From: Eledone cirrhosa
Taxonomy: Eukaryota
Assembly (NCBI GenBank): GCA_964016885.1
Contig: OZ024757.1
Span: 9,114,001 to 9,178,000 of the forward strand
Length of the DNA: 64,000 bases
Direction: 5' to 3'
Positions 3,194-35,547 of this stretch are shown here, piece after piece. How positions within the stretch are numbered: the stretch's first letter is position 1; each line of letters begins with the position of its first letter. The notes beneath the pieces are model-generated. The model did no database searches. It was not told the origin of the DNA and worked only from the letters and a program-made list of their open reading frames with translations. Position numbers and translations under genes: made by a program.

Positions 3194-3870
3194 CACACAC
3201 ACACATACATATATAGGAATATGTATGTAAACAACGCTAGAAGTACCAAATAAATCTATATCCTGTTTCTTTATATTGTCATGATAAAATAGTTTATTTT
3301 ACCAAATATAAAATGTGATAAAAACTGTACACCCTACCTGGCAATTTCTAGCCTTAGTACATTTGTACGTAAAGATATATTGTAATTTCAGTTACAGAAT
3401 GTTAATCTATAAACTGTAATTCGTATCTCTGCAAAATTTTATTACAAAATAAGTTATTAAGAAAGTTATAAGAACATTTAGTGAGGGGCTCTCTAGTCTA
3501 GATTACTATCATAAATTTTACAGGCAAAGGGAGATAATATCAAACCGAAGGCTTTAAAGATTTATTCCCCTTTGTTAAACGTTTCAGTCTGTGTGGTAAA
3601 TACAAATGCTAGAAATGGCAGCCAAATAATAAAAATATGTAACGTGGAAAAAGTTAGAAATAGCAGCTAAGTCAGCTCTAAATTTTCATATGTATATTAA
3701 CATACATGTGATAAAAATATATTTCCAGACGTATCTCATATCATATATATTTTTAGCGGTCTTTTGGTCTATTCACCACCATGGGCTATAAAACATGTCT
3801 TTTCTCTACACCATGTGTGTTTTCTTAGTTATCTAATATATTTTTAGAAGTGTTGATCATATTGATAGGT

Positions 3871-3949
3871 ATCCGCCGATGAGCTACATCTACAATATAT
3901 ATTCTTCCCTTTTATAGCGAAATATACTCTTATTTGAGCATGTCTGGAT
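3871..3949 (+). ncRNA. Hammerhead ribozyme remnant (U4>C mutant of 39216-39294)
   Basis: atccg-CCGAUGA-GCUA..UAGC-GAAA-stem III-GUC-uggau; a core position is mutated. Confidence 0.6.
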
Positions 3950-4312
3950 GTTATAGTTATAAATAGATGGTTACTACGCTTTAATATATTATTTTAATTG
4001 ATTTGTATCCACCATTACTTCCATAGTTGATATGTTCGTCACTCTGGTGGTTTTTAATCCCCTATGATTGAACACATATCTCTATGTGTACTTCTCTCTA
4101 TATGGTTATTTATAAAGAACCCGGAATCTAATCCTTGAGCTCATTAAATTATAGGGGATTAATGTGAGTCTTTAACAAATAATATATCATACACAAAACG
4201 CCAGCATCAACAGTTTTCCAAGAGATGTCAACATGAATGGACCTGTTATCCAAAGATATGTTTTCCAATTCCATCTTGCCCGTCCCTTCAATTTAACTAA
4301 TTTGTCATTCTT

Positions 4313-4720: not shown

Positions 4721-5625
4721 CTATTTCTTCCTTCCTATCATTTCTTCACTATATTCATTGTTAATTCTCACCTTGCTCACTGTTTCTTTATACATGGCTC
4801 TCACATGCCATTCATCCACTCCTAGTTTTCTAAGGGTCCACCAGAAAATGTAGCTGGGGACTCTGTCAAAGGCTTTCTCCAAGTCAACGAAAGCTAAGTA
4901 TAGGGGTTTACTTTTGGCTAGATACTTCTCCTGTAGTTGTCGTACAAGGAAAAGAGCGTCTGTGGTACTTTTACCTGACACAAACCAAAACTGCATTTCA
5001 TCTAGATCAATTCTGTCTCTGATTAGTTGTGCTATAACTCTTTCTGTGACCTTCATGACCTGGTCAACTACCTTAATGATTCTATAGTTCCCCCTACCTA
5101 TAGCATCTCCTTTTTCTCTTGTAGCAGTTAACGATGATGCTGCTACCCCAGTCCTTTGGTATGACCTCATTCTGTATTACTTAGTTTACTATCTGGGTGT
5201 CCATAGTATGTTCCACGATTCCAGATGCTTTCAACATCTCAGCAACTATCTCCAAAGGCCCAGCTGCCTAGCCTGTCTTCATATCTTTGATTGCCTTACT
5301 TATTATACTACCTTTAACTTGCACCGCTGTTCCTTCTATTGGATCAATGTGGGGCAGACTATTTTTTTCTCATTTATTCTCCTCTTTTAGTAGTCCCTCG
5401 TAGTGACACTTCCAAGCTACCTTCTTATCAGTATCAGTGAGGGCAAGTACACCATCATCATTACGGACACACTTCTCCCTGACAATATCACAGTTTTCCT
5501 TGACACATTGTCTAGCAATCCTGAACACCTCACGTTTTTGGTCTTCGTGTTGTAGAACATGCTTGAACTTTCTATCCTCTGCTTCCCCTCTTGCAAGGTA
5601 CACTTGTCTCCTAGCCACCCGATAG
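4721..5625 (-). mobile_element. RTE-clade LINE fragment (RT N-terminal half, frameshifted)
   Basis: ORF track: NYRII...QFWFVSGKSTTDALFLVRQLQEKY...LYLAFVDLEKAFDRVP; upstream VAWKCHYEGLL. Confidence 0.92.
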
Positions 5626-6004: not shown

Positions 6005-6636
6005 ATTCATTAGTTAAACAAAACAAGACCACAAATTTCACAAGGAAGACATTATTAAAAGAATGTCAACATATTTTAGTTTGATGTAAGGAATGTAGAG
6101 AATAATAATAATAATATTAATAATAATAATGTCCGTTTACAATTGTCTCGTTACTCCATATAATATTTCTGGATCAAATGATTATATATCATTATTGATC
6201 TGGTTCAGTTGAAAATAATTAACATAGGTAGAAATAGAGCAGCTCATCGGAACTCCAAAAGGAATATAAATTAAAATAAGGAAAGAATGTTACATTATTA
6301 TTATTAATATTATTATTACATTATTATTATTATTATTATAGTAATGTACTGGGTAATTTGCTGGTCTTGTGCCTAAAGTAGAAACAATTATTACATTATT
6401 ACATTATTATTATTAATCCCGCCGAGGTTAACTTCGCCTTTCATCCTTCCGGGGTCGATAGAATAAAGTACCAGTAATGCATTGGGTAATTGCTGGCCTT
6501 GTGCCAAAAGTAGAAACAATTATTATTAATATTATTACTATTATTCCCTACATTCCTTACATCAAACTAAAATATGTTGACAATCTTTTAATAATGTCTT
6601 CCTTGTGAAATCTGTGGTCTTGTTTTGCTTAACTAA

Positions 6637-6642
<6 letters not shown>
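6005..6642. mobile_element. Element with ~95-bp inverted ends, decayed hammerhead (6135-6253, minus) and SINE fragment (6416-6518)
   Basis: 6007-6100 is the reverse complement of ~6548-6642. Minus strand: guu-CCGAUGA-gcugcucu...ggaguaac-GAG-ACAAUUGU-A-aac (two core substitutions). Duplicate HHR remnant at 41487-41605. Confidence 0.55.
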
Positions 6643-6681
<39 letters not shown>

Positions 6682-7074
6682 ATAATAATAAATTTGAAGA
6701 CTAAAATCCAAAGCGGGCTTGATAAGGATAAATATATATGAGATATATAAGAACCGTAGTGCAAATATTCATTAAAATAACAGATTAAAGTTTAAGCAAA
6801 GAATCGCTTTGTCTTTGCGTGTAATTGATTTCACCGCTCCAAATAATGACGTATTATCTTCGTTTTTTTTTCGTTCTTTGACAGGGAATGTTTTCCACGA
6901 ACCAAAGTATCGTCTTCCTGTCTTCCTTCGGTTGTAACGTTTCTCGAAATATTTAATTCTGCGTTCACAGATTGATTTTTTTTAGTTTCAGAAGATCCCG
7001 TTAAGAGGGAAAGCAGCGATTCTTTGCTTAAACTTTAATCTGTTATTTTAATTAATATATATAGATATAAATGT

Positions 7075-7584
7075 GGATATAGTGTATTTTGCAATACACT
7101 GTATGCTTAATTAAAAGCATTTCGAAGACCTTATGCTATTGTTTTAGAGTAGTGACAGACTCACTTACTTTAATTTTCAGCAAACAGGGGAGATAAAGCT
7201 GACAGGGCCCTGTTTCGCATTTATTGATGCTTATCAAAGCCAACTACTCCTCCTGTTTGCAGAAATCATGGATGTTTGGTTCTTATAGAATTCTAGTAAA
7301 TAATCAGGAACTGATTATACAGAGCGGTTGCCGGTCAAACAGAAATTGAAATTAGAATTGGTGCTCTGCAATAGCTATATATATATGGATGTATATACAG
7401 TGTATTTTGCAATACACTGTATGCTTAATTAAAAGTACGTGAGTCTGTCACTTAAAGTAAGTGAGTCTGTCACTACTCTAAAACAATAGCATAAGTTCTT
7501 CGAAATGCTTTAATTAAGCATACAGTGTGTTGCAAAATACACGATATATACATACATATATATATAGCTATTTCAGAGCACCAA

Positions 7585-7590
<6 letters not shown>
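7075..7590 (-). mobile_element. ~318-bp HHR element: monomer + partial direct repeat + inverted segment
   Basis: agtgtattttgcaatacactg occurs at 7081 and 7399; 7452-7590 is an inverted copy spanning the unit junction; (TA)n flanks. Confidence 0.75.
7180..7260 (-). ncRNA. Type I hammerhead ribozyme, U3-A8 core variant
   Basis: Minus strand: GCAAACAGG aGGAG uaguu GGCU-UUGAUAA-GCAU caauaa AUGC-GAA-ACAGGGCCCUGU-C-AGCU uuau CUCC CCUGUUUGC. Long stem I with internal loop; GUC triplet. Confidence 0.88.
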
Positions 7591-7674
<84 letters not shown>

Positions 7675-8883: not shown

Positions 8884-8923
8884 GATATTAAACAAATGGA
8901 AACTATATTTATAAAACCATATT

Positions 8924-8989
8924 TATTTCATTATACATATTTCAGGGATACCATATTAAAAATATGGCATGCCTTCTTCAGATAAAATA
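8924..8989 (-). ncRNA. Type I hammerhead ribozyme
   Basis: Minus strand: UAUUUUAU-CUGAAGA-AGG c AUGCCAUAUU uuu AAUAUGGUAU c CCU-GAA-AUAUGUAU-A-AUGAAAUA; homologous to 35483-35547. Confidence 0.8.
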
Positions 8990-9973
8990 CAATATATAAG
9001 CAGTTTTATAAATAAATTTGACGTACCATTATTATTGTTCAACTTCCATTTAAAAAAGTTGGTTTGGTAGTGAAATGTTTGTAAATATTTAGTGTTAAGC
9101 ACAGTTAAAAAGAAAGACGGAGAGAAGGAATAAATGTATGTAAAGAAAAACAGAGAGAGATAGAGAGAGATATGGGAGAGAGAAATAGTGAGGGGGTGAA
9201 AAATGAGAGGCAGCTGAGGCAACAGATGAATAATAATAATAATTCATCATACAAATTGAGAGATTTAGGAGGGAGGGAGTACTGTAATTATTTATTCATT
9301 TATTTATTTAGTTATAGTGTTAAGGAGACGGAGAGAAATAAAAATAAATAAAGAGAAAACAGCGATACTTAAATTTCATCATGTATAGAGGGTGGAGAAG
9401 AAAGAGTTATATCTAGAGAGAAGGATGACAGATTTATAATTTACGTTATGTCCTATCAGTTTGAATTATCAATTCATATGAATTGGGTATTATAATGCAA
9501 ATATCAATATTCATGAATGAGACATAGATACATAATGTGTGAAAAATAATGACCATATGTTTAGTTTAAAAATTCTTAGGTCGATATATCAAAAACTGAG
9601 ATAAAACTTCAAAAATACATAAGTATATATGTACTTTCCGGAAAAAAGAAAGAAAGAGAAAAAGAAAAAGAGAAGGTCATCTCAAGTTTTAGTTGACACT
9701 ATAGATATACACGTGAACTTACGTGATCAGCTCTGTAATTTCTTATTTCACATGAAAAAATTTTCCCTAGCGTTATAAAAGATTTTACTATATATATATA
9801 TATATATACATACATACACATACATAAAAATATATATTAATATTAATATTCCTGCACTCACATACATGATTATCGTTCATGTATAGAATAGACAACAGGT
9901 ATTAATATATCAAAACGCTAAGAATACTTTCATCACTCAACAATTTTAATTACGGTAACAACTTTAACAACTA

Positions 9974-12900
9974 CTAGCAGTAAAGCCCGGCGTTGCTCGG
10001 GGTCGCTCAGTAGCTGTGTTAAAGTTACAATGTTAAGTTTCTTTTTTGGCTTAAAAACTGTAATGTCTACTGTGCAGACTTGCATATGGTGTTTTTGATT
10101 AATATTCCCTCAACCAACAATATGCCTTATGAAGTTAAGAAAACATAACGATAACCCGAATGTTATAACAAAAGAGGATGCTGGGGATAAAAACTGCACT
10201 GGTTATATATTAACAAAGATCGAAAATGTAAACACTGCAACGCAGAGAAAAACATTAGCGTAACCAAATTATCAGTTATGTCTGTCTGCACGCCTATATC
10301 ACCTCTCTGCACGACTGTCTGTCTGCACGCCTATATCACCTCTCTGCACGACTGTCTGTCTGCACGCCTATATCACCTCTCTGCACGACTATCTGTCTGC
10401 ACGCCTATATCACCTCTCTGCACGACTGTCTGTCTGCACGACTGTCTGTCTGCACGCCTAACGCCGAAATATTTGCTTGTTTTACGTAGTCTTTAAATAG
10501 ACTTGTTTTCAAGTAAAAATATTGTTTTAAAATGCTTTTAAATGGAAATGAAGCAGTGTTCGAACTGATGAATTTTGCAGGTCAATATTTTGCTGGCTCG
10601 ACAACTGTTAAAGCCAGCGTAATTTTTTACGTAAGACGCTCAATGTAAACAGAACAAAGGGAAATAACTGATAACTTACGCTCAAAAATCGATACATTAT
10701 ATTCGATTTCGTCACATAGGGTGGGTCAATTTGAAATATTTTTTTTTCCGATGTCTTCGCTAGGGCTCAATGTACAAGTATAGCAATTTCGGTGCAATTC
10801 CGTGAGAGATTCTAAGAGGAGATGTGTGCCAAAAATCGATAGACAGACAGGCAACCACAGTTTTATATATATAGATAATAGAAAGCATTACAATAATTCC
10901 AAAAGCCAGAAAAGAAATAGAACTAGAAATATAATATGGTTTGCCCCCCCCCCCCTTTCTCACTAAATATTAAAACCCACATTGCTAAACGTAAGACGCT
11001 CAATGTAAACAGAACAAAGGGAAATAACTCGTCACTTACGCTCAAAAATCGATACATTAGATTCGATTTCGTCACATAGGGTGGGTCAATTTGAAATATT
11101 TTGTTCCGATGTCTTCGCTAGGGCTCAATGTACAAGTATAGCAATTTCGGTGCAATTCCGTCAGAGGATATGTGTGCCAAAAATCGATAGACAGACAGAC
11201 AACCACAGCTTTATATATATAGACTAACAGTAAAGTCCGGCGTTGCTCGGGGTCGCTCAGTAGCTGTGTTAAAGTTACAATGTTAAGTTTCTTTTTTGGC
11301 TTAAAGTCTGTCTGCACGACTGTCTGTCTGCACGCCTATCGAAATTTACAGATACATATATTTTAAATAAACTTATATAATTTTTGCTTTTTTTTACGAA
11401 ATATTTGCTTGTTTTACGTAGTCTTTAAATAAACTTGTTTTCAACTAAAAATATTGTTTTAAAAGGCTTTTAAATGGAAATGAAGCAAAACGGAAGCTTA
11501 GTGTTCGAACTGATGAATTTTGCAGGGCAAAATTTTGCTGGCTCGACAACTGTTCGTGTATTGTGTTAATGTCATTTTAAACGCTGAGAAAGCCAGCGTA
11601 ATTTTTTTAATTTTTGCACGCAGAAAATGTAAACAACGTAGGACGCTCAATGTAAACAGAACAAAGGGAAATAACTCGTCACTTACGCTCAAAAATCGAT
11701 ACATTAGATACGATTTCGTCACATAGGGTGGGTCAGTTTGAAATATTTTTTTCCGATGTCTTCGCTAGGGCTCAATGTACAAGTATAGCAATTTCGGTGC
11801 AATTCCGTCAGAGATTCTAAGAGGAGATGTGTGCCAAAAATCGATAGACAGACAGACAACCACAGCTTTATATATATAGACTAGCAGTAAAGCCCGGCGT
11901 TGCTCGGCGTCGCTCAGTAGCTGTGTTAAATTACAATGTTAAGTTTCTTTTTTGGCTTAAAGTCTGTCTGCACGCCTAACGAAATTTACAGATACATATA
12001 TTTTAAATAAACTAATATAATTTTTGCTTTTTTTGACGAAATATTTGCTTATTTTACGTAGTCTTTAAATAGACTTGTTTTCAAGTAAAAATATTGTTTT
12101 AAAAGGCTTTTAAATGGCAATGAAGCAAAACGGAAGCTTAGTGTTCGAACTAATTAATTTTGCAGGTCAAAATTTTGCTAGCTCGACAACTGTACGTGTA
12201 TTGTGTTAATGTCATTTTAAACGCTGAGAAAGCCAGCGTAATTTTTTTAATTTTTGCACGCAGAAAATGTAAACAGAACGTAAGACGCTCAATGTAAACA
12301 GAACAAAGGGAAATAACTCGTCACTTACGCTCAAAAATCGATACATTAGATTCGATTTCGTCACATAGGGTGGGTCAATTTGAAATATTTTTTTTCCGAT
12401 GTCTTCGCTAGGGCTCAATGTACAAGTATAGCAATTTCGGTGCAATTCTGTCACAGATTCTAAGAGGAGGTGTGTGCCAAATATCGATAGACAGACAGAC
12501 AACCACAGCTTTATATATATATAGAATAAAGGGAAATAACTCGGCACTTACGCTCAAAAATCGATACATTAGATTCGATTTCGTCACATAGGTGGGTCAA
12601 TTTGAAATATTTTTTCCGATATCTTCGCTAGGGCTCAATGTAGAAGTATAGCAATTTCGGTGCAATTCCGTCAGAGATTCTAAGAGGAGATGTGTGCCAA
12701 AAATCGATAGACAGACAGACAACCACAGCTTTATATATACACTAGCAGTAAAGCCCGGCGTTGCTCGGGGTCGCTCAGTAGCTGTGTTAAAGTTACAATG
12801 TTAAGTTTCTTTTTTGGCTTAAAGTCTGTCTGCACGACTGTCTGTCTGCACGCCTAACGAAATTTACAGATACATATATTTTAAATAAACTTATATAATT

Positions 12901-15900
12901 TTTGCTTTTTTTTACGAAATATTTGCTTGTTTTACGTAGTCTTTAAATAAACTTGTTTTCAAGTAAAAATATTGTTTTAAAAGGCTTTTAAATGGAAATG
13001 AAGCAAAACGGAAGCTTAGTGTTCGAACTGATGAATTTTGCAGGTCAAAATTGTGCTGGCTCGACAACTGTTCGTGTATTGTGTTAATATCATTTTAAAC
13101 GATGAGAAAGCCAGCGTAATTTTTTTAATTTTTGCACGCAGAAAATGTAAACAGAACGTAAGACGCTCAATGTAAACAGAAGGGAAATAACTCGTCACTT
13201 ACGCTCAAAAATCGATACATTAGATTCGATTTCGTCACATAGGGTGGGTCAATTTGAAATATTTTTTTCCGATGTCTTCGCTAGGGCTCATTGTACAAGT
13301 ATAGCAATTTCGGTGCAATTCCGTCAGTGATTCTAAGAGGAGATGTGTGCCAAAAATCGATAGACAGACAGACAACCACAGCTTTATATATATAGAACAA
13401 AGGGAAATAACTCGTCACTTACGCTCAAAAATCGATACATTAGATTAGATTTCGTCACATAGGGTGGGTCAATTTGAAATATTTTTTTCCGATGTCTTCG
13501 CTAGGGCTCAATGTACAAGTATAGCAATTTCTGTGCAATTCCGTCAGAGATTCTAAGAGGAGATGTGTGCCAAAAATCGATAGACAGACAGACAACCACA
13601 GCTTTATATATATAGAACAAAGGGAAATAACTCGTCACTTACGCCCAAAAATCGATACATTAGATTCGATTTCGTCACATAGGGTCGGTCAATTTGAAAT
13701 ATTTTTTTTCCGATGTCTTCGCTAGGGCTCAATGTACAAGTATAGCAATTTCGGTGCAATTCCGTCAGAGATTCTAAGAGGAGATGTGTGCCAAAAATCG
13801 ATAGACAGACAGACAACCACAGCTTTATATATATAGACTAGCAGTAAAGCCCGGCGTTGCTCGGGGTCGCTCAGTAGCTGTGTTAAATTTACATTGTTAA
13901 GTTTCTTTTTTGGCTTAAAGTCTGTCTGCACGACTGTCTGTCTGAACGCCTAACGAAATTTACAGATACATATATTTTAAATAAACTTATATAATTTTTG
14001 CTTTTTTTTACGAAATATTTGCTTGTTTTACGTAGTCTTTAAATAAACTTGTTTTCAAGTAAAAATATTGTTTTAAAAGGCTTTTAAATGGAAATGAAGC
14101 AAAACGGAAGCTTAGTGTTCGAACTGATGAATTTTGCAGGTCAAAATTGTGCTGGCTCGACAACTGTTCGTGTATTGTGTTAATATCATTTTAAACGATG
14201 AGAAAGCCAGCGTAATTTTTTTAATTTTTGCACGCAGAAAATGTAAACAGAACGTAAGACGCTCAATGTAAACAGAAGGGAAATAACTCGTCACTTACGC
14301 TCAAAAATCGATACATTAGATTCGATTTCGTCACATAGGGTGGGTCAATTTGAAATATTTTTTTCCGATGTCTTCGCTAGGGCTCATTGTACAAGTATAG
14401 CAATTTCGGTGCAATTCCGTCAGAGATTCTAAGAGGAGATGTGTGCCAAAAATCGATAGACAGACAGACAACCACAGCTTTATATATATAGAACAAAGGG
14501 AAATAACTCGTCACATACGCTCAAAAATCGATACATTAGATTAGATTTCGTCACATAGGGAGGGTCAATTTGAAATATTTTTTTCCGATGTCTTCGCTAG
14601 GGCTCAATGTAGAAGTATAGCAATTTCTGTGCAATTCCGTCAGAGATTCTAAGAGGAGATGTGTGCGAAAAATCGATACACAGACAGACAACCACAGCTT
14701 TATATATATAGAACAAAGGGAAATAACTCGTCACTTACGCCCAAAAATCGATACATTAGATTCGATTTCGTCACATAGGGTGGGTCAATTTGAAATATTT
14801 TTTCCGATGTCTTCGCTAGGGCTCAATGTACAAGTATAGCAATTTCGGTGCAATTCCGTCAGTGATTCTAAGAGGAGATGTGTGCCAAAAATCGATAGAC
14901 AGACAGACAACCACAGCTTTATATATATAGAACAAAGGGAAATAACTCGTCACTTACGCTCAAAAATCGATACATTAGATTAGATTTCGTCACATAGGGT
15001 GGGTCAATTTGAAATATTTTTTTCCGATGTCTTCGCTAGGGCTCAATGTACAAGTATAGCAATTTCTGTGCAATTCCGTCAGAGATTCTAAGAGGAGATG
15101 TGTGCCAAAAATCGATAGACAGACAGACAACCACAGCTTTATATATATAGAACAAAGGGAAATAACTCGTCACTTACGCCCAAAAATCGATACATTAGAT
15201 TCGATTTCGTCACATAGGGTCGGTCAATTTGAAATATTTTTTTTCCGATGTCTTCGCTAGGGCTCAATGTACAAGTATAGCAATTTCGGTGCAATTCCGT
15301 CAGAGATTCTAAGAGGAGATGTGTGCCAAAAATCGATAGACAGACAGACAACCACAGCTTTATATATATAGACTAGCAGTAAAGCCCGGCGTTGCTCGGG
15401 GTCGCTCAGTAGCTGTGTTAAATTTACATTGTTAAGTTTCTTTTTTGGCTTAAAGTCTGTCTGCACGACTGTCTGTCTGAACGCCTAACGAAATTTACAG
15501 ATACATATATTTTAAATAAACTTATATAATTCTTGCTTTTTTTTACGAAATATTTGCTTGTTTTACGTAGTCTTTAAATAAACTTGTTTTCAAGTAAAAA
15601 TATTGTTTTAAAAGGCTTTTAAATGGAAATGAAGCAAAACGGAAGCTTAGTGTTCGAACTGATGAATTTTGCAGGTCAAAATTGTGCTGGCTCGACAACT
15701 GTTCGTGTATTGTGTTAATATCATTTTAAACGATGAGAAAGCCAGCGTAATTTTTTTAATTTTTGCACGCAGAAAATGTAAACAGAACGTAAGACGCTCA
15801 ATGTAAACAGAAGGGAAATAACTCGTCACTTACGCTCAAAAATCGATACATTAGATTCGATTTCGTCACATAGGGTGGGTCAATTTGAAATATTTTTTTC

Positions 15901-18900
15901 CGATGTCTTCGCTAGGGCTCATTGTACAAGTATAGCAATTTCGGTGCAATTCCGTCAGAGATTCTAAGAGGAGATGTGTGCCAAAAATCGATAGACAGAC
16001 AGACAACCACAGCTTTATATATATAGAACAAAGGGAAATAACTCGTCACATACGCTCAAAAATCGATACATTAGATTAGATTTCGTCACATAGGGAGGGT
16101 CAATTTGAAATATTTTTTTCCGATGTCTTCGCTAGGGCTCAATGTAGAAGTATAGCAATTTCTGTGCAATTCCGTCAGAGATTCTAAGAGGAGATGTGTG
16201 CGAAAAATCGATACACAGACAGACAACCACAGCTTTATATATATAGAACAAAGGGAAATAACTCGTCACTTACGCCCAAAAATCGATACATTAGATTCGA
16301 TTTCGTCACATAGGGTGGGTCAATTTGAAATATTTTTTCCGATGTCTTCGCTAGGGCTCAATGTACAAGTATAGCAATTTCGGTGCAATTCCGTCAGAGA
16401 TTCTAAGAGGAGATGTGTGCCAAAAATCGATAGACAGACAGACAACCACAGCTTTATATATATAGACTAGCAGTAAAGCCCGGCGTTGCTCGGGGTCGCT
16501 CAGTAGCTGTGTTAAATTTACATTGTTAAGTTTCTTTTTTGGCTTAAAGTCTGTCTGCACAACTGTCTGTCTGAACGCCTAACGAAATTTACAGATACAT
16601 ATATTTTAAATAAACTTATATAATTTTTGCATTTTTTTACGAAATATTTGCTTGTTTTACGTAGTCTTTAAATAAACTTGTTTTCAACTAAAAGTATTGT
16701 TTTAAAAGGCTTTTAAATGGAAATGAAGCAAAACGTAAGCTTAGTGTTCGAACTGATGAATTTTGCAGGTCAAAATTTTGCTGGCTCGACAACTGTTCGT
16801 GTATTGTGTTAATGTCATTTTAAACGCTGAGAAAGCCAGCGTAATTTTTTTAATTTTTGCACGCAGAAAATGTAAACAGAACGTAACACGCTCAATGTAA
16901 ACAGAAGGGAAATAACTCGTCACTTACGCTCAAAAATCGATACATTAGATTCGATTTCGTCACATAGGGTGGGTCAATTTGAAATATTTGATTTCCGATG
17001 TCTTAGCTAGGGCTCAATGTACAAGTATAGCAATTTCGGTGCAATTCCGTCAGAGATTCTAAGAGGAGATGTGTGCCAAAAATCGATAGACAGACAGACA
17101 ACCACAGCTTTATATATATAGACTAGCAGTAAAGCCCGGCGTTGCTCGGGGTCGCTCAGTAGCTGTGTTAAATTACAATGTTAAGTTTCTTTTTTGGATT
17201 AAAGTCTGTCTGCACGCCTAACGAAATTTACAGATACATATATTTTAAATAAACTAATATAATTTTTGCTTTTTTTGACGAAATATTTGCTTATTTTACG
17301 TAGTCTTTAAATAGACTTGTTTTCAAGTAAAAATATTGTTTTAAAAGGCTTTTAAATGGCAATGAAGCAAAACGGAAGCTTAGTGTTCGAACTAATTAAT
17401 TTTGCAGGTCAAAATTTTGCTAGCTCGACAACTGTACGTGTATTGTGTTAATGTCATTTTAAACGCTGAGAAAGCCAGCGTAATTTTTTTAATTTTTGCA
17501 CGCAGAAAATGTAAACAGAACGTAAGACGCTCAATGTAAACAGAACAAAGGGAAATAACTCGTCACTTACGCTCAAAAATCGATACATTAGATTCGATTT
17601 CGTCACATAGGGTGGGTCAATTTGAAATATTTTTTCCGATGTCTTCGCTAGGGCTCAATGTACAAGTATAGCAATTTCGGTGCAATTCTGTCACAGATTC
17701 TAAGAGGAGGTGTGTGCCAAATATCGATAGACAGACAGACAACCACAGCTTTATATATATATAGAACAAAGGGAAATAACTCGGCACTTACGCTCAAAGA
17801 TCGATACATTAGATTCGATTTCATCACATAGGTGGGTCAATTTGAAATATTTTTTCCGATATCTTCGCTAGGGCTCAATGTAGAAGTATAGCAATTTCGG
17901 TGCAATTCCGTCAGAGATTCTAAGAGGAGATGTGTGCCAAAATTCGATAGACAGACAGACAACCACAGCTTTATATATATAGACTAGCAGTAAAGCCCGG
18001 CGTTGCTCGGGGTCGCTCAGTAGCTGTGTTAAAGTTACAATGTTAAGTTTCTTTTTTGGCTTAAAGTCTGTCTGCACGACTGTCTGTCTGCACGCCTAAC
18101 GAAATTTACAGATACATATATTTTAAATAAACTTATATAATTTTTGCTTTTTTTTACGAAATATTTGCTTGTTTTACGTAGTCTTTAAATAAACTTGTTT
18201 TCAAGTAAAAATATTGTTTTAAAAGGCTTTTAAATGGAAATGAAGCAAAACGGAAGCTTAGTGTTCGAACTGATGAATTTTGCAGGTCAAAATTGTGCTG
18301 GCTCGACAACTGTTCGTGTATTGTGTTAATATCATTTTAAACGATGAGAAAGCCAGCGTAATTTTTTTAATTTTTGCACGCAGAAAATGTAAACAGAACG
18401 TAAGACGCTCAATGTAAACAGAAGGGAAATAACTCGTCACTTACGCTCAAAAATCGATACATTAGATTCGATTTCGTCACATAGGGTGGGTCAATTTGAA
18501 ATATTTTTTTCCGATGTCTTCGCTAGGGCTCATTGTACAAGTATAGCAATTTCGGTGCAATTCCGTCAGAGATTCTAAGAGGAGATGTGTGCCAAAAATC
18601 GATAGACAGACAGACAACCACAGCTTTATATATATAGAACAAAGGGAAATAACTCGTCACATACGCTCAAAAATCGATACATTAGATTAGATTTCGTCAC
18701 ATAGGGAGGGTCAATTTGAAATATTTTTTTCCGATGTCTTCGCTAGGGCTCAATGTAGAAGTATAGCAATTTCTGTGCAATTCCGTCAGAGATTCTAAGA
18801 GGAGATGTGTGCGAAAAATCGATACACAGACAGACAACCACAGCTTTATATATATAGAACAAAGGGAAATAACTCGTCACTTACGCCCAAAAATCGATAC

Positions 18901-21900
18901 ATTAGATTCGATTTCGTCACATAGGGTGGGTCAATTTGAAATATTTTTTCCGATGTCTTCGCTAGGGCTCAATGTACAAGTATAGCAATTTCGGTGCAAT
19001 TCCGTCAGAGATTCTAAGAGGAGATGTGTGCCAAAAATCGATAGACAGACAGACAACCACAGCTTTATATATATAGACTAGCAGTAAAGCCCGGCGTTGC
19101 TCGGGGTCGCTCAGTAGCTGTGTTAAATTTACATTGTTAAGTTTCTTTTTTGGCTTAAAGTCTGTCTGCACAACTGTCTGTCTGAACGCCTAACGAAATT
19201 TACAGATACATATATTTTAAATAAACTTATATAATTTTTGCATTTTTTTACGAAATATTTGCTTGTTTTACGTAGTCTTTAAATAAACTTGTTTTCAACT
19301 AAAAGTATTGTTTTAAAAGGCTTTTAAATGGAAATGAAGCAAAACGTAAGCTTAGTGTTCGAACTGATGAATTTTGCAGGTCAAAATTTTGCTGGCTCGA
19401 CAACTGTTCGTGTATTGTGTTAATGTCATTTTAAACGCTGAGAAAGCCAGCGTAATTTTTTTAATTTTTGCACGCAGAAAATGTAAACAGAACGTAAGAC
19501 GCTCAATGTAAACAGAAGGGAAATAACTCGTCACTTACGCTCAAAAATCGATACATTAGATTCGATTTCGTCACATAGGGTGGGTCAATTTGAAATATTT
19601 GATTTCCGATGTCTTAGCTAGGGCTCAATGTACAAGTATAGCAATTTCGGTGCAATTCCGTCAGAGATTCTAAGAGGAGATGTGTGCCAAAAATCGATAG
19701 ACAGACAGACAACCACAGCTTTATATATATAGACTAGCAGTAAAGCCCGGCGTTGCTCGGGGTCGCTCAGTAGCTGTGTTAAATTACAATGTTAAGTTTC
19801 TTTTTTGGATTAAAGTCTGTCTGCACGCCTAACGAAATTTACAGATACATATATTTTAAATAAACTAATATAATTTTTGCTTTTTTTGACGAAATATTTG
19901 CTTATTTTACGTAGTCTTTAAATAGACTTGTTTTCAAGTAAAAATATTGTTTTAAAAGGCTTTTAAATGGCAATGAAGCAAAACGGAAGCTTAGTGTTCG
20001 AACTAATTAATTTTGCAGGTCAAAATTTTGCTAGCTCGACAACTGTACGTGTATTGTGTTAATGTCATTTTAAACGCTGAGAAAGCCAGCGTAATTTTTT
20101 TAATTTTTGCACGCAGAAAATGTAAACAGAACGTAAGACGCTCAATGTAAACAGAACAAAGGGAAATAACTCGTCACTTACGCTCAAAAATCGATACATT
20201 AGATTCGATTTCGTCACATAGGGTGGGTCAATTTGAAATATTTTTTCCGATGTCTTCGCTAGGGCTCAATGTACAAGTATAGCAATTTCGGTGCAATTCT
20301 GTCACAGATTCTAAGAGGAGGTGTGTGCCAAATATCGATAGACAGACAGACAACCACAGCTTTATATATATATAGAACAAAGGGAAATAACTCGGCACTT
20401 ACGCTCAAAGATCGATACATTAGATTCGATTTCATCACATAGGTGGGTCAATTTGAAATATTTTTTCCGATATCTTCGCTAGGGCTCAATGTAGAAGTAT
20501 AGCAATTTCGGTGCAATTCCGTCAGAGATTCTAAGAGGAGATGTGTGCCAAAAATCGATAGACAGACAGACAACCACAGCTTTATATATATAGACTAGCA
20601 GTAAAGCCCGGCGTTGCTCGGGGTCGCTCAGTAGCTGTGTTAAAGTTACAATGTTAAGTTTCTTTTTTGGCTTAAAGTCTGTCTGCACGACTGTCTGTCT
20701 GCACGCCTAACGAAATTTACAGATACATATATTTTAAATAAACTTATATAATTTTTGCTTTTTTTTACGAAATATTTGCTTGTTTTACGTAGTCTTTAAA
20801 TAAACTTGTTTTCAAGTAAAAATATTGTTTTAAAAGGCTTTTAAATGGAAATGAAGCAAAACGGAAGCTTAGTGTTCGAACTGATGAATTTTGCAGGTCA
20901 AAATTGTGCTGGCTCGACAACTGTTCGTGTATTGTGTTAATATCATTTTAAACGATGAGAAAGCCAGCGTAATTTTTTTAATTTTTGCACGCAGAAAATG
21001 TAAACAGAACGTAAGACGCTCAATGTAAACAGAAGGGAAATAACTCGTCACTTACGCTCAAAAATCGATACATTAGATTCGATTTCGTCACATAGGGTGG
21101 GTCAATTTGAAATATTTTTTTCCGATGTCTTCGCTAGGGCTCATTGTACAAGTATAGCAATTTCGGTGCAATTCCGTCAGTGATTCTAAGAGGAGATGTG
21201 TGCCAAAAATCGATAGACAGACAGACAACCACAGCTTTATATATATAGAACAAAGGGAAATAACTCGTCACTTACGCTCAAAAATCGATACATTAGATTA
21301 GATTTCGTCACATAGGGTGGGTCAATTTGAAATATTTTTTTCCGATGTCTTCGCTAGGGCTCAATGTACAAGTATAGCAATTTCTGTGCAATTCCGTCAG
21401 AGATTCTAAGAGGAGATGTGTGCCAAAAATCGATACACAGACAGACAACCACAGCTTTATATATATAGACTAGCAGTAAGGCCCGGCGTTGCTCGGGGTC
21501 GCCCAGTAGCTGTGTTAAAGTTACAATGTTAAGTTTCTTTTTTGGCTTAAAGTCTGTCTGCACGCCTAACGAAATTTACAGATACATATATTTTAAATAA
21601 ACTTATATAATTTTTGCTTTCTTTTACGAAATATTTGCTTGTTTTACGTAGTCTTTAAATAAACTTGTTTTCAACTAAAAATATTGTTTTAAAAGGCTTT
21701 TAAATGGAAAGGAAGCAAAACGGAAGCTTAGTGTTCGAACTGATGTATTTTGCAGGTCAAAATTTTGCTGGCTCGACAACTGTTCGTGTATTGTGTTAAT
21801 GTCATTTTAAACGCTGAGAAAGCCAGCGTAATTTTTTTAATTTTTGCACGCAGAAAATGTAAACAACGTAAGACGCTCAATGTAAACAGAACAAATTTAA

Positions 21901-24900
21901 ATAACTCGTCACTTACGCTCAAAAATCGAGACATTAGATACGATTTCGTCACATAGGGTGGGTCAATTTGAAATATTTTTTCCGATGTCTTCGCTAGGGC
22001 TCAATGTACAAGTATAGCAATTTCGGTGCAATTCCGTCAGAGATTCTAAGAGGAGATGTGTGCCAAAAAGGGATAGACAGACAGACAACCACAGCTTTAT
22101 ATATATAGAACAAAGGGAAATAACTCGTCACTTACGCTCAAAAATCGATACATTAGATTAGATTTCGTCACATAGGGTGGGTCAATTTGAAATATTTTTT
22201 CCAATGTCTTCGCTAGGGCTCAATGTACAAGTATAGCAATTTCTGTGCAATTCCGTCAGAGATTCTAAGAGGAGATGTGTGCCAAAAATCGATAGACAGA
22301 CAGACAACCACAGCTTTATATATATAGACTAGCAGTAAAGCCCGGCGTTGCTCGGGGTCGCTCAGTAGCTGTGTTAAATTTACATTGTTAAGTTTCTTTA
22401 TTGGCTTAAAGTCTGTCTGCACGACTGTCTGTCTGCACGCCTAACGAAATGTACAGATAGATATATTTTAAATAAACTTATATAATTTTTGCTTTTTTTT
22501 ACGAAATATTTGTTTGTTTTACGTAGTCTTTAAATAAACTTGTTTTCAACTAAAAATATTGTTTTAAAAGGCTTTTAAATGGAAATGAAGCAAAACGGAA
22601 GCTTAGTGTTCGAACTGATGAATTTTGCAGGTCAAAATTTTGCTGGCTCGACAACTGTTCGTGTATTGTGTTAATGTCATTTTAAACGCAGAGAAAGCCA
22701 GCGTAATTTTTTTAATTTTTGCACGCAGAAAATGTAAACAGAACGTAAGACGCTCAATGTAAACAGAACAAAGGGAAATAACTCGTCACTTACGCTCAAA
22801 AATCGATACATTAGATTCGATTTCGTCACATAGGGTGGGTCAATTTCAAATATTTTTTTTCCGATGTCTTCGCTAGGGCTCAATGTACAAGTATAGCAAT
22901 TTCGGTGCAATTCTGTCACAGATTCTAAGAGGAGGTGTGTGCCAAATATCGATAGACAGACAGACAACCACAGCTTTATATATATAGAACAAAGGGAAAT
23001 AACTCGTCACTTACGCTCAAAAATCGATACATTAGATTCGATTTCGTCACATAGGGTGGGTCAATTTGAAATATTTTTTTCCGATATCTTCGCTAGGGCT
23101 CAATGTACAAGTATAGCAATTTCGGTGCAATTCCGTCAGATATTCTAAGAGGAGATGTGTGCCAAAAATCGATAGACAGACAGACAACCACAGTTTTATA
23201 TATATAGAAAGACTAGCAGTAAAGCCCGGCGTTGCTCGGGGTCGCTCAGTAGCTGCGTTAAAGTTACAATGTTAAGTTTCTTTTTTGGCTTAAAGTCTGT
23301 CTGCACGACTGTCTGTCTGCACGACTGTCTGTCTGCACGCCTAACGAAATTTACAGATACATATATTTTAAATAAACTTATATAATTTTTGCTTTTTTTT
23401 ACGAAATATTTGCTTGTTTTACGTAGTCTTTAAATAGACTTGTTTTCAAGTAAAAATACTGTTTTAAAAGGCTTTTAAATGGAAATGAAGTAAAACGGAA
23501 GCTTAGTGTTCGAACTGATGAATTTTAGAGGTCAAAATTTTGCTGGCTCGACAACTGTTCGTGTATTGTGTTAATGTCATTTTAAACGCTGAGAAAGCCA
23601 GCGTAATTTTTTTAATTTTTGCACGCAAAAAATGTAAACAGAACGTAAGACGCTCAATGTAAACAGAACAAAGGGAAATAACTCGTCACTTACGCTCAAA
23701 AATCGATACATTAGATTCGATTCCGTCACATGGGGTCGGTCAATTTGAAATATTTTTTTCCGATGTCTTCGCTAGGGCTCAATGTACAAGTATAGCAATT
23801 TCGGTGCAATTCCGTCAGAGATTCTAAGAGGAGATGTGTGCCAAATATCGATAGACAGACAGACAACCACAGCTTTATATATATAGACTAGCAGTAAAGC
23901 CCGGCGTTGCTCGGGGTCGCTCAGTAGCTGTGTTAAAGTTACAATGTTAAGTTTCTTTTTTGGCTTAAAGTCTGTCTGCACGACTGTCTGTCTGCACGCC
24001 TAACGAAATTTACAGATACATATATTTTAAATAAACTTATATAATTTTTGCTTTTTTTTACGAAATATTTGCTTGTTTTACGTAGTCTTTAAATAGACTT
24101 GTTTTCAAGTAAAAATACTGTTTTAAAAGGCTTTTAAATGGAAATGAAGTAAAACGGAAGCTTAGTGTTCGAACTGATGAATTTTAGAGGTCAAAATTTT
24201 GCTGGCTCGACAACTGTTCGTGTATTGTGTTAATGTCATTTTAAACGCTGAGAAAGCCAGCGTAATTTTTTTAATTTTTGCACGCAGAAAATGTAAACAG
24301 AACGTAAGACGCTCAATGTAAACAGAACAAAGGGAAATAACTCGTCACTTACGCTCAAAAATCGATACATTAGATTCGATTCCGTCACATGGGGTCGGTC
24401 AATTTGAAATATTTTTTTCCGATATCTTCGCTAGGGCTCAATGTACAAGTATAGCAATTTCGGTGCAATTCCGTCAGATATTCTAAGAGGAGATGTGTGC
24501 CAAAAATCGATAGACAGACAGACAACCACAGTTTTATATATATAGAAAGACTAGCAGTAAAGCCCGGCGTTGCTCGGGGTCGCTCAGTAGCTGTGTTAAA
24601 GTTACAATGTTAAGTTTCTTTTTTGGCTTAAAGTCTGTCTGCACGACTGTCTGTCTGCACGACTGTCTGTCTGCACGCCTAACGAAATTTACAGATACAT
24701 ATATTTTAAATAAACTTATATAATTTTTGCTTTTTTTTACGAAATATTTGCTTGTTTTACTTAGTCTTTAAATAGACTTGTTTTCAAGTAAAAATACTGT
24801 TTTAAAAGGCTTTTAAATGGAAATGAAGTAAAACGGAAGCTTAGTGTTCGAACTGATGAATTTTAGAGGTCAAAATTTTGCTGGCTCGACAACTGTTCGT

Positions 24901-27403
24901 GTATTGTGTTAATGTCATTTTAAACGCTGAGAAAGCCAGCGTAATTTTTTTAATTTTTGCACGCAGAAAATGTAAACAGAACGTAAGACGCTCAATGTAA
25001 ACAGAACAAAGGGAAATAACTCGCCACTTACGCTCAAAAATCGATACATTAGATTCGATTCCGTCACATGGGGTCGGTCAATTTGAAATATTTTTTTCCG
25101 ATGTCTTCGCTAGGGCTCAATGTACAAGTATAGCAATTTCGGTGCAATTCCGTCAGAGATTCTAAGAGGAGATGTGTGCCAAATATCGATAGACAGACAG
25201 ACAACCACAGCTTTATATATATAGACTAGCAGTAAAGCCCGGCGTTGCTCGGGGTCGCTCAGTAGCTGTGTTAAAGTTACAATGTTAAGTTTCTTTTTTG
25301 GCTTAAAGTCTGTCTGCACGACTGTCTGTCTGCACGCCTAACGAAATTTACAGATACATATATTTTAAATAAACTTATATAATTTTTGCTATTTTTTACG
25401 AAATATTTGCTTGTTTTACGTAGTCTTTAAATAGACTTGTTTTCAAGTAAAAATACTGTTTTAAAAGGCTTTTAAATGGAAATGAAGTAAAACGGAAGCT
25501 TAGTGTTCCAACTGATGAATTTTGCAGGTCAAAATTTTGCTGGCTTGACAACTGTTCGTGTATTGTGTTAATGTCATTTTAAACGCTGAGAAAGCCAGCG
25601 TAATTTTTTTAATTTTTGCACGCAGAAAATGTAAACAGAACGTAAGACGCTCAATGTAAACAGCAGGGAAATAACTCGTCACTTACGCTCAAAAATCGAT
25701 ACATTTGATTCGATTGCGTCACATAGGGTGGGTCAATTTGAAATATTTTTTTTCCGATGTCTTCGCTAGGGCTCAATGTACAAGTATAGCAATTTCGGTG
25801 CAATTCCGTCAGAGATTCTAAGAGGAGATGTGTGCCAAAGATCGATAGACAGACAGACAACCACAGCTTTATATATATAGACTAGCAGTAAGGCCCGGCG
25901 TTGCTCGGGGTCGCCCAGTAGCTGTGTTAAAGTTACAATGTTAAGTTTCTTTTTTGGCTTAAAGTCTGTCTGCACGCCTAACGAAATTTACAGATACATA
26001 TATTTTAAATAAACTTATATAATTTTGGCTTTTTTTAACGAAATATTTGCTTCTTTTACGTAGTCTTTAAATAAACTTGTTTTGAAGTAAAAATATTGTT
26101 TTAAAAGGCTTTTAAATGGAAATGAAGCAAAACGGAAGCTTAGTGTTCGAACTGATGAATCTTGCAGGTCAAAATTTTGCTGGCTCGCCAACTGTTCGTG
26201 TATCGTGTTAATGTCATTTTAAACGCTGAGAAAGACAGCGTAATTTTTTTTATTTTTGCACGCAGAAAATGTAAACAACGTAAGACGCTCAATGTAAACA
26301 GAACAAAGGGAAATAACTCGTCACTTACGCTCAAAAATCGATACATTAGATACGATTTCGTCACATACGGTGGGTCAATTTGAAATATTTTTTTCCGATG
26401 TCTTCGCTAGGGCTCAATGTACAAGTATAGCAATTTCGGTGCAATTCCGTCAGATATTCTAAGAGGAGATGTGTGCCAAAAATCGAAAGACAGACAGACA
26501 ACCACAGCTTTATATATATAGAACAAAGGGAAATAACTCGTCACTTACGCTCAAAAATCGATACATTAGATTCGATTTCGTCACATAGGGTGGGTCAATT
26601 TGAAATATCTTTTTTCCGATGTCTTCGCTAGGGCTCAATGTACAAGTATAGCAATTTCGGTGCAATTCCGTCAGAGATTCTAAGAGGAGATGTGTGCCAA
26701 AAATCGATAGACAGACAGACAACCACAGCTTTATATATATAGACTAGCAGTAAAGCCCGGCGTTGCTCGGGGTCGCTCAGTAGCTGTGTTAAAGTTACAA
26801 TGTTAAGTTTCTTTTTTGGCTTAAAGTCTGTCTGCACGACTGTCTGTCTGCACGCCTAACGAAATTTACAGATACATATATTTTAAATAAACTAATATAA
26901 TTTTTGCTTTTTTTTACGAAATATTTGCTTGTTTTACATAGTCTTTAAATAGACTTGTTTTCATGTAAAAAATATTGTTTTAAAAGCCTTTTAAATGGAA
27001 ATGAAGCAAAACGGAAGCTTAGTGTTCGAACTGATGAATTTTGCAGATCAAAATTTTGCTTGCTCGACAACTGTTCGTGTATCGTGTTAATGTCATTTTA
27101 AACGCTGAGAAAGCCAGCGTAATTTTTTTAATTTTTGCACGCAGAAAATGTAAACAGAACGTAAGACGCTCAATATAAACAGAACAAAGGGAAATAACTC
27201 GTCACTTACGCTCAAAAATCGATACATTAGATTAGATTTCGTCACATAGGGTGGGTCAATTTGAAATATTTTTTTCCGATGTCTTCGCTAGGGCTCAATG
27301 TACAAGTATAGCAATTTCGGTGCAATTCCGTCAGAGATTCTAAGAGGAGATGTGTGCCAAAAATCGATAGACAGACAGACAACCACAGCTTTATATATAT
27401 AGA
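9974..27403 (-). mobile_element. Head-to-tail tandem array of a non-autonomous Helitron (~640-675 bp units plus ~219-bp 5'-only units)
   Basis: Minus-strand unit starts TCTATATATATAAAGC..(GTCT)n and ends CCCGAGCAACGCCGGGCTTTACTGCTAG (GC hairpin + CTAG). Junctions read CTAG|TC. The outer ends are flanked by A (5') and T (3'). Confidence 0.9.
10280..10460. repeat. 37-bp minisatellite inside the first Helitron copy
   Basis: ctgcacgcctatatcacctctctgcacgactgtctgt, ~4 copies. Confidence 0.85.
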
Positions 27404-27429
27404 TGACATAATCAAAAACAAGAAGTTAT

Positions 27430-28719
27430 TTGAAAATTTATTTGACCGATGGTTCCGCCGGACCTTCATCTATAAGTGTAGCAATTTCACCAAAATTTGA
27501 ACGTACGGTTTAAGAGGAGATGTGTGCCGAATGTTTTAGTAGACAGACAGACAACCTCAGTTTTATATATATAGACTAGCAGGGGTACCCGGCGTTGCTC
27601 GGGTATTAAATAGCAGTTATGTATACCATTTATGTCAATACTTCAGTGCTGCTTCGAAAACTATACTTTTATAAACTCGTCGACTTTTTCCAAAAGGGGG
27701 TTCCTGCCCTCAGGGGTCCCCTACTCAATATCTGCCAATTCTGAGAGTTCACATTCATCTGTAGAACAAACATATCCCATGTGTCAAGTTTTGTGAAAAT
27801 CGGTTGCGAACTCCAGAAGTTATGACGTTTTTTTTGCATTGCACTGCAGTGCTTCAGTCGACTCCAAGGAAGTGGTTAAAGGGCGTTATCCGCCGGGAGG
27901 CCCTATAATCAATATCTGGAAAAATGAAAGTGTCCATGACCATCCGGAGTACATAAGTAACCTATATCTTAAGTTTGGTGAAAATACTGTAGAAATGCAT
28001 AAGGTTTACACACGCGCGCGCACGCGCACGTGTGTGTGTGTGTGTATGTATTTGTGTGTGCGTATGTATAAGTATGTGTATGTCCGTCGGCGCATACGTA
28101 TGTACTGGCCTAAATCTTCACTATTTATTTTTACTATGTTAAGGCAAATTTAAAATCCCGTCGAGGTTAACTTTGCCTTTCATCCTTACGGGGTCGATAA
28201 AATAAAGTACCAGTAATGTACTGTTTAATTGCTGGCCTTGTGCCAAAAGTAGAAACAACTATTTTAATAACCTGTCATTTTCGTTTACAATTTTATTTAC
28301 ATCATTCTTAAACTCCGGGGCTGGTAATCATTCGGTTATTTTAAATAGAATATTAGGCTAACGACTCCATTTACACCATAAACTTGGTCTTCTCTTTGCA
28401 TGAAATTGTTCTTCTCGGTCCACCGCGTCGTTTATACGTAACATAAAGAGATAAGCAAATGACGCCATAAAAGGGAAATAACTCGTCTCTCATCTCTATT
28501 TATACATTTGAACTGAAAAATCAATACATTACAAATTCGATTTTTACACTTGGCGTGGGTCGATTTGAAAATTTATTTGACCGATGGTTCCGCCGGACCT
28601 TCATCTATAAGTGTAGCAATTTCACCGAAATTTGAACGTACGGTTTAAGAGATGTGTGCCGACGGATTTAGTAGACAGACACACAGACAGACGGACAACC
28701 TCAGTTTTATATATATAGA
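27430..28719 (-). mobile_element. Second, related non-autonomous Helitron family (full copy 27576-28719 plus partial 5' copy), containing a SINE fragment at 28154-28258
   Basis: Plus strand ctagcaggggtacccggcgttgctcggg at 27576; 5' end ...ttttatatatataga at 28719; 27430-27575 repeats 28570-28719. Confidence 0.75.
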
Positions 28720-34823: not shown

Positions 34824-35482
34824 GGGAGACATGATATGATGCCTAGAAAAACACTTGTGAACAAGGTAGTATCTAGTCAATATATGATAAATAAATTTAA
34901 AAGGATATAGAAGATTGGAAAAAAGGGAAGGAAGGGGAAAAAAGGAAGGAAGAGGAAGGAAGGGGAAAAAGAAGGAGAGGATAACGGAGCAAGAAGGAAG
35001 GAGGAGAGAGAAAGAGAGGGAGAGAAAGAGAGATGGAGAGAGAGAGAGAGATTTAAACTGAAAAACGGTGTCACCACTGAAAAATAACTGAATAACGGTT
35101 GTAAAATTAATTAAATTAAAAAATTAAAAATTGATGAGGTTTATGATTGATGATGTTTATGACTACAGCGATAGAAATTAAGTATACTATTTATTTAGGG
35201 ATTATATACCGAAGGATTTATTAAGAGGTGCGAAAAAGTTTTATTAAATGTATTATTAAAATAAAATAAAGATAATGTGAATCATAATAAAATTAAATGA
35301 CTTATAAGCTTAGAAGACGATATAGGGTCCTAGTTTGTTTAAATAGATTGTAATTGAAAAAGTATTTCTGTGAAAAAGTAATTATTTAAGCAAAGACAAG
35401 CACGGAATGAGAGAAGAAATATATATATATATATATATATAAAGGGTATGTTAAAATTTATTTATAAAACTGGTATATATTG

Positions 35483-35547
35483 TATTTTGTCTGATGAAAG
35501 CATACCATAATTTAGCATGGTATCCTTGAAATATGTATAATAAAATA
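35483..35547 (+). ncRNA. Type I hammerhead ribozyme
   Basis: UAUUUUGU-CUGAUGA-AAG c AUACCAU aauuuagc AUGGUAU c CUU-GAA-AUAUGUAU-A-AUAAAAUA; pairing is preserved relative to 8924-8989. Confidence 0.8.

Follow-up and report, generated by a model that had tools for sequence, protein, structure and literature searches.

The locus at 7058-7591 of the window (the whole 64,000-nucleotide stretch of DNA that was analysed) combines a hammerhead ribozyme motif having a U3-A8 core with a 318-bp repeat unit and a short inverted piece of the same sequence, and the question it raises is what kind of element this is and by what route it came to be inserted. The reading that we prefer, with a probability of roughly 0.7, is that it is a copy of an abundant ORF-less 318-bp repeat bearing a U3-A8 type I hammerhead: likely a non-LTR retrozyme, predicted from folding to cut only as a double hammerhead formed by two units, and likely inserted by the enzyme of a Penelope-like element (PLE). 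Published systems are cited here from the accessible parts of the papers named.

The hammerhead motif and its U3-A8 core

The first-pass annotation had described a type I hammerhead on the minus strand, with a UUGAUAA core, a GUC site and a stem I interrupted by an internal loop. Such a motif was indeed found, with a descriptor score of 13, at which 60 shuffled windows give 0.017 matches per window. Its parts are as follows.

7177-7264, minus strand: type I hammerhead of canonical architecture (manual reading, folding and Rfam HH9 alignment)
7231-7237, minus strand: core U3-U4-G5-A6-U7-A8-A9 (UUGAUAA), with U3 at 7237, A8 at 7232 and A9 at 7231 (from sequence)
7217-7230, minus strand: stem II of 4 bp (G7230-C7217, C7229-G7218, A7228-U7219, U7227-A7220), with loop CAAUAA
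7216-7213, minus strand: GAAA, 3' of stem II
7202-7213, minus strand: stem III, a perfect 12-nt palindrome, predicted to form a 12-bp helix between units (sequence and folding)
7200-7201, minus strand: GUC, with the predicted self-cleavage site between 7201 and 7200, uncut in the DNA copy (hammerhead consensus)

The motif shows the succession N3-UGA-N7-N8-A, GAAA and UH that defines the type I hammerhead, together with a Watson-Crick 3-8 pair and three helices. Stem I has a 4-bp stem Ia, which an internal loop separates from a distal helix some 13 bp long; in the Rfam alignment loop 1 (UAGU/UAU) and loop 2 (CAAUAA) look like the tertiary loops of HH9, a hammerhead whose setting is a conserved intron. 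The HH9 match spans 7179-7254 with 21 bits (E 0.0033 in a 151-base search), which is well short of the gathering threshold of 52 bits for membership, and it is absent from the listing of the whole-window Rfam search. Nor is this a minimal PLE hammerhead (min-HHR), for helix II is of 4 bp, loop 1 is defined and stem III is of 12 nt. None of 200 shuffles was equally stable (z = -4.8), a value that belongs to the minimum-energy fold, which differs from the active hammerhead fold.

It had also been claimed that U3-A8 occurs in two unrelated families of the window. A descriptor search of the window gave 11 positions at a score of at least 8, and the window holds five credible hammerhead families, three of them C3-G8 (the 467-bp tandem with 3 copies, 8981/35491, and 39221) and two U3-A8 (7237 and 54282). 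The second, unrelated U3-A8 candidate is the following:

54265-54316, plus strand: UUGAAAA core at 54282, short palindromic stem III (descriptor; 310-bp fold-back)

It is weak when taken alone, since it scores 10, at which shuffles give 0.37 matches per window; its support comes from the palindromic stem III on both arms of the fold-back. The 467-bp family is C3-G8, and U3-A8 is the minority state among the hammerhead families of the window, at 2/5; the further suggestion that the variant is common in this lineage is not shown by the window. The fold-back itself (54080-54390) is of 310 bp with 94% identical arms, each with a small U3-A8 hammerhead-like motif, the core of one arm having an additional G and its stem III being a perfect ACCGGT; the whole resembles a head-to-head PLE stub. 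The 467-bp tandem, at 1451-2747, comprises 2.8 units, 99% identical and so young, between TA runs; each unit has a C3-G8 type I hammerhead (1784, 2251, 2718; Rfam HH9 37.7 bits), making this a second retrozyme-like family, with a unit slightly above the usual range. Short AT-rich elements at 8890-9019 and 35454-35580, 90% identical and likewise between TA runs, each have a hammerhead-like motif of the C3-G8 type in which stem II is long. A block duplicated with 98-99% identity (3554-4155, and 38900-39500 and beyond) has a C3-G8 candidate at 39221, the copy of which near 3876 has U4C, and a weaker candidate at 4317/39662; it is followed by a LINE reverse transcriptase (RT) fragment (4724-5176, 40066-40467).

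Several other matches were set aside: the weak pair 4317/39662 (score 8; C3-G8 and C3-A8), a descriptor match at 52294 that is A3-A8 and lies inside zinc-finger coding sequence, a TTGATAA at about 6719 in the left neighbour of the element, which has no stem II closure and did not come up in the descriptor search, and the Rfam microRNA matches in the window, which are microsatellite hairpins. Elsewhere the window contains a 17-kb array of ~220-bp units and 71-bp arrays in alternating orientation (10300-27600 and 45198-49076), in neither of which a hammerhead motif was found; a nearly complete LINE ORF2 in two frames, with AP endonuclease and RT (49494-52030); and tandem C2H2 zinc-finger coding stretches (59961-60572, 52191-52457, 56832-57550), whose database matches, at 35-59% identity, are generically animal. 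The microsatellite content of the window gives a loosely octopus-like impression.

The 318-bp unit, its copies and its insertion

The unit length first proposed, 318 bp, is borne out by a direct repeat at a spacing of 318 and by tandem joints in sequencing reads. The copy at this locus is laid out as follows.

7058-7435, minus strand: repeat copy in the sense orientation, 378 bp long (1.19 units), with its 3' end (7058-7070) in a TA run and its edge blurred
7118-7435, minus strand: one full 318-bp unit, rotation arbitrary, without an ORF of at least 60 aa (318-bp spacing, read joints, ORF list)
7058-7117: direct repeat, left copy, 60 bp (repeat search)
7376-7435: direct repeat, right copy, holding a 12-bp stem-loop at 7395-7422 (repeat search, folding)
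7452-7591, plus strand: inverted 5'-truncated copy, sense on the plus strand, covering unit positions 7173 to 7118 and then 7435 to 7351
7432-7453, plus strand: 22-bp stutter in which the beginning of the inverted piece (7454-7474) is repeated, with AAAG microhomology at the inversion junction
7555-7591, plus strand: one-sided tail of the inverted copy, whose 3' end lies 25-37 nt past that of the forward copy
7053-7063: candidate target-site duplication, left, 11 bp, of low complexity and uncertain
7588-7598: candidate target-site duplication, right, of low complexity and running into (TA)n
7305-7347: 43-bp segment common to an abundant sister family, a candidate cis-signal (reads and contigs)

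The direct repeat had been put at about 38 bp; it exists, with a core identical at 40 of 41 positions, and its full length is 60 bp at 90% identity. The start sites inferred for reverse transcription are found just downstream of the stem-loop in its right copy. The inverted piece aligns to 7351-7433 and to 7114-7180 (94% each), and this continuity had been thought to be absent from the forward copy. That holds for 25 nt only (7351-7375), these being all that reaches past the forward left copy, because 7452-7566 itself has a collinear match in forward 7058-7173 (92% over 116 nt). When the hammerhead strand is taken as sense, the inverted piece occupies the 5' end, and each of the two 3' ends faces outward into a TA run, with no flanking host DNA inside the inverted piece. 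The left and inverted copies have the same alleles at all eight family-polymorphic sites checked and differ in 4 of 97 columns, which fits a single event followed by a few percent of drift.

The left neighbour (6616-7058) was considered as a MITE splitting the element and rejected, being a distinct repeat of greater length, on whose far side the missing 25 nt do not occur. It consists of a forward piece and an inverted piece that overlap by about 44 bp with respect to a linear copy at 44461-44805. This rearranged form is seen again near 42000 (41950-42329), and is possibly another inverted retro-insertion.

The resemblance of the inversion to Penelope-type insertions, also noted at first pass, is upheld in its polarity and, less surely, in its tail, the range of 25-37 nt reflecting ambiguity of the boundary within the TA run. 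PLE insertions have been described as a partial tandem with an adjacent inverted, 5'-truncated copy and a one-sided tail of 30-40 bp (PMC3846280; 10.1101/2021.04.23.441226), the tail being explained by two internal starts of reverse transcription on uncut RNA after a nick in AT-rich DNA (PMC11167929). The anatomy seen here, with its inverted 5' copy, outward 3' ends in TA runs and one-sided tail, suggests an insertion of the Penelope type, and by this analogy the enzyme of a PLE is the likely agent. In the route proposed, a PLE RT/GIY-YIG protein acting in trans would nick a TA-rich target; reverse transcription of an uncut multimer or a circle would begin at two internal positions, separated by 25-37 nt; and the resulting longer-than-unit copy would be joined head-to-head to a short inverted, tailed copy via the AAAG microhomology and the 22-nt stutter of re-priming. 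The element has no ORF combining a telomerase-like RT with GIY-YIG and so is not an autonomous PLE, and the 85 of 140 window ORFs that were scanned (satellite arrays excluded) show neither a PLE ORF nor a GIY-YIG domain, only LINE-type RT, endonuclease and zinc fingers.

That the template was a circle or multimer had been argued from the inverted piece. The conclusion survives on other grounds, since the 378-bp forward part exceeds the unit and crosses the uncut site, which requires such a template, and other copies too have tandem joints at 318 bp; the original argument does not, since the inverted piece fits within one self-cleaved linear monomer and by itself is no proof of either form. Circle and multimer are indistinguishable from this copy.

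Part of the unit is present in 8 of 13 sequencing runs, four of the 13 having been compared in detail. Organism A has it in abundance (run X11, 5,922 reads out of 12.5 million; X1, 2,440 contigs), and it occurs also in organisms B and C; runs X4 and X5 gave 41 and 3 contigs. A collinear family contig of 284 nt is among the matches, but no aligned read or contig spans the whole unit, so that full dimers with both hammerheads intact were not seen and tandem order is read from joints. These are few, namely 7 reads with 3 starts that pass from 7394 to 7077, exactly 318 back, and single contigs, one of which (X4) continues head-to-tail from 7435 into 7118 sequence. Read-end pile-ups at 7109, 7172, 7292, 7347, 7356 and 7430 were rejected as element boundaries, since all fall on AATT, presumably the restriction site used for the libraries; read depth was not taken as a measure of copy number, nor was its step at 7374-7386 taken to prove a shared end point, low-complexity attraction being possible there. 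The family-specific hammerhead pattern had no match in metagenome and viral contigs. The sister family that shares 7305-7347 is more abundant and is found in organisms A, B and C (with a 340-nt contig in X5); it differs upstream, and its sequence downstream of the 43-bp segment also resembles 7348-7375. The shared segment is a candidate for a conserved promoter or enzyme-recognition signal.

Differences between family reads and the window copy were taken from the best 40 of 135 rows, 11 of which lie inside the hammerhead. Six of these 11 sites make up three exchanges of one Watson-Crick pair for another at matched frequencies: G-C to A-U at 7209/7206 in stem III (605 and 637 of 986 reads; 61/65%), and in stem II C-G to U-A at 7229/7218 (370 of 955 and 351 of 938; 39/37%) and U-A to C-G at 7227/7220 (510 of 961 and 502 of 943; 53/53%). 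Three such pairs among 11 sites arise in 0.3% of random draws; the linkage of paired changes is deduced from their matched frequencies, and each may be one inherited event. At three further sites the variant preserves a pair or creates one (7241, G-U to A-U; 7259, C-G to U-G; and 7261, which restores A-U). The 7209/7206 exchange would close a 2-nt loop in a monomer and is sensible only if the palindrome pairs between units; alternatively, DNA-level correction of the palindrome could mimic covariation in stem III. On the strength of the three compensatory changes, two in stem II and one in stem III, the hammerhead fold is probably maintained, probably by selection, without decay.

The core positions 7237 and 7232 are absent from these best 40 of 135 rows, whereas private changes of the window copy appear there as near-fixed rows (7261, 7339, 7369), so U3-A8 is probably the majority state of the family. 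Rarer C3-G8 copies may exist: the other 95 rows include about 10 A>G and about 12 T>C places in X11, leaving room for a C3/G8 minority, and as 11 random sites would miss the core with a chance of 0.18, core invariance alone is without significance. The earlier view that U3-A8 is not a product of decay thus agrees with both the compensatory pairs and the core positions.

Predicted dimer switch and hairpin trap

The folding predictions use nearest-neighbour energies only, tertiary contacts and proteins being ignored. In a single unit, linear or circular, 7241-7235, comprising the 5' strand of stem I with U3, U4 and G5, is predicted to pair with 7206-7212 (p ~0.99) and so to be hidden in a wrong helix, the active fold lying 4.4 kcal/mol above this off fold. 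Of 150 random palindromes just 15 reach a gap as large as the native one, which is preserved in the natural variant combination A7241/A7209/U7206. For the homodimer (-80.5 kcal/mol) and the 636-nt tandem dimer (-175.7 kcal/mol), the unconstrained minimum is a double hammerhead, in which, for the tandem dimer, the inter-unit stem III has p 0.96 and stem Ia p 0.48. The ribozyme would then be off in a monomer or circle, where U3-U4-G5 are locked in the wrong helix; in a tandem transcript, pairing of the two stem III palindromes would allow both active cores to form; and cleavage would release unit-length RNA able to be circularised.

The same calculations bear on the choice of core pair. In silico the double hammerhead is the minimum in 12 of 16 variant backgrounds with U3-A8, so that four U3-A8 combinations also miss it, and in 2 of 16 with C3-G8, which is tolerated only where U stands at 7229, C at 7227 and A at 7241; with random stem III palindromes the counts are 149/150 and 0/150. 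After the C3-G8 swap the winning structure is a local hairpin, G2.3-C2.2-U2.1-C3 pairing with G8-A9-G10.1-C10.2. When the dimer is folded with C3 alone or G8 alone there is no trap, and G3-C8 misfolds too. The flanks GCU and AGC would extend the 3-8 pair into this competing hairpin, and C3-G8 would stabilise it and unfold the ribozyme; the models thus suggest that U3-A8 is retained in the family because C3-G8 would arm a hairpin trap. A search for unrelated hammerheads on which to try the trap idea gave chance matches, 4 and 2 viral loci and 90 metagenome loci with core pairs UG 40, UA 31, CG 11 and CA 8, none of which made a convincing hammerhead, and so speaks neither for the trap nor against it. 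The weak 4317 candidate has a similar flank, yet is C3-G8.

It is tempting to combine these elements into a single scheme, in which the hammerhead is a copy-number switch, U3-A8 has been selected to disarm the trap, and PLE enzymes mobilise the retrozyme from an uncut circle or multimer, leaving the whole Penelope footprint of inverted copy, two internal RT starts and tail on its genomic copies. As a whole this scheme is tentative and we think it rather doubtful, but if true it would give evidence, directly from the structure of the copies, for PLE enzymes as the mobilisers of animal retrozymes. A PLE-like protein as the agent that spreads animal retrozymes has so far been a proposal (PMC7229834; bioRxiv 10.64898/2026.07.22.740005, in their accessible text). 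Where an ORF-less unit is inserted with an inverted, tailed copy, the mechanism has left a footprint, and as such footprints lend themselves to counting in any assembly, the PLE question can be tested directly. The trap idea would explain natural U3-A8 cores in a way that is falsifiable at little cost. Entire families such as the 318-bp repeat would escape descriptor surveys in which C3-G8 is fixed.

Other explanations and comparison with known systems

The insertion anatomy would be identical if the 318 bp were the pseudo-LTR of an autonomous PLE and the locus an ordinary 5'-truncated PLE stub, not an independent retrozyme. This appears unlikely: other copies are joined to themselves at the 318-bp period, the unit is without an ORF, and the hammerhead is canonical with tertiary-type loops, whereas metazoan PLE hammerheads, in the portion of PMC4209133 available, are mostly minimal. 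It would nonetheless account for the sister family, which has 7305-7347 in common and differs upstream, and in Xenopus 24 of 57 retrozyme families show homology to known TEs, almost always to the ends of PLEs (bioRxiv 10.64898/2026.07.22.740005).

The two outward 3' ends, the tail-sized offset, the placing of both ends in TA runs with a candidate (low-complexity) 11-bp duplication, and the lack of host flank in the inversion all argue against a DNA-level event, in which replication template switching at AT palindromes and microsatellites would have inverted part of a pre-existing satellite copy with no RNA intermediate at this locus. We judge such an origin to be quite improbable, even though the AAAG microhomology, the stutter of 22 bp, the near-palindromic sequences of the junction and the TA runs that flank the locus on either side would suit it, as would several opposite-strand joints at varied read positions, some of them at library cut sites. 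Least probable, and in our view very unlikely, is a relic hammerhead, with U3-A8 and the off fold as the marks of a family that has ceased to cleave and spreads without cleavage. The predicted misfolding of the monomer would agree with this, as would the available accounts that PLE insertion in vitro is unimpaired by hammerhead mutants (PMC11167929) and that 8 of 9 Xenopus dimers were uncleaved (bioRxiv 10.64898/2026.07.22.740005); it is opposed by compensatory changes in three pairs and by three further variants that preserve pairing, all seen across subfamilies, and by the Watson-Crick nature of the 3-8 pair, such covariants being reported as active in vitro (PMC3088659).

For a non-LTR retrozyme inserted with the help of a PLE enzyme, the ingredients are individually known and none is new alone. 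U3-A8 was reported as a natural covariation in 2011, with activity of such covariants in vitro (Perreault et al., PMC3088659), and some 1,300 minimal hammerheads with U3-A8 were described in 2014 in the Cercyon PLEs of Schistosoma mansoni (Cervera and De la Pena, PMC4209133). As presented there, the Schistosoma motifs share with the 7237 hammerhead the U3-A8 swap, a palindromic stem III and a dimer model of cleavage; they are minimal, with a long helix II and an ill-defined loop 1, and mostly single, unlike the 7237 hammerhead with its 4-bp stem II, canonical-looking tertiary loops and tandem unit. Compared with Rfam RF02275 (Hammerhead_HH9), the motif aligns across the whole model, with loop 2 CAAUAA against CAAAAA and a similar loop 1; it differs in its 21 bits against a gathering score of 52, its U3-A8 core, its shorter stem Ia and its location in a repeat.

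The insertion is like those of endonuclease-positive PLEs, so far as the accessible descriptions go (Arkhipova et al. 2013, PMC3846280; Craig et al. 2021; Frangieh et al. 2024), in its partial tandem, inverted 5'-truncated neighbour, outward 3' ends, AT-rich target and microhomology or palindrome at the junction, their tail being of about 30-40 bp against 25-37 nt here, where the boundary is blurred by the TA run. Unlike them, the 318-bp element lacks an RT/GIY-YIG ORF, and its unit repeats on itself. The case made by Li, Clavereau and Pollet (2026) for a link between retrozymes and PLEs draws on their co-occurrence and on homology to pLTRs (bioRxiv 10.64898/2026.07.22.740005). In mainly open-access main texts no U3-A8 retrozyme family, inverted tailed retrozyme insertion or hairpin-trap explanation was found, though the supplementary figures of the two Cervera papers may show such families.

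Closest are the metazoan non-LTR retrozymes (PMC7229834; bioRxiv 10.64898/2026.07.22.740005), which, in the main texts, likewise have an ORF-less, AT-rich unit of 150-450 bp with one canonical type I hammerhead, tandem joints and dispersed monomers, and in axolotl the dimer-dependent cleavage that is predicted here. Regulation by dimers is known for metazoan hammerheads; the stem III predicted here is unusually long, its 12-nt palindrome, like the U3-A8 core, setting the element apart from those retrozymes, which have 1-2 bp plus a short loop. The inverted, tailed insertion is a further difference, such insertions being unmentioned in the main texts of these two papers, bar a reference title in that of 2026. 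One of nine Xenopus retrozyme dimers cleaved (bioRxiv 10.64898/2026.07.22.740005), so a well-formed motif may be silent. With its ORF-less 318-bp unit, single type I hammerhead, multiple copies and head-to-tail joints, all of them testable criteria, the repeat is likely a variant of the non-LTR retrozyme, set apart by its U3-A8 core, by the long palindrome of stem III and by an insertion that is probably of Penelope type.
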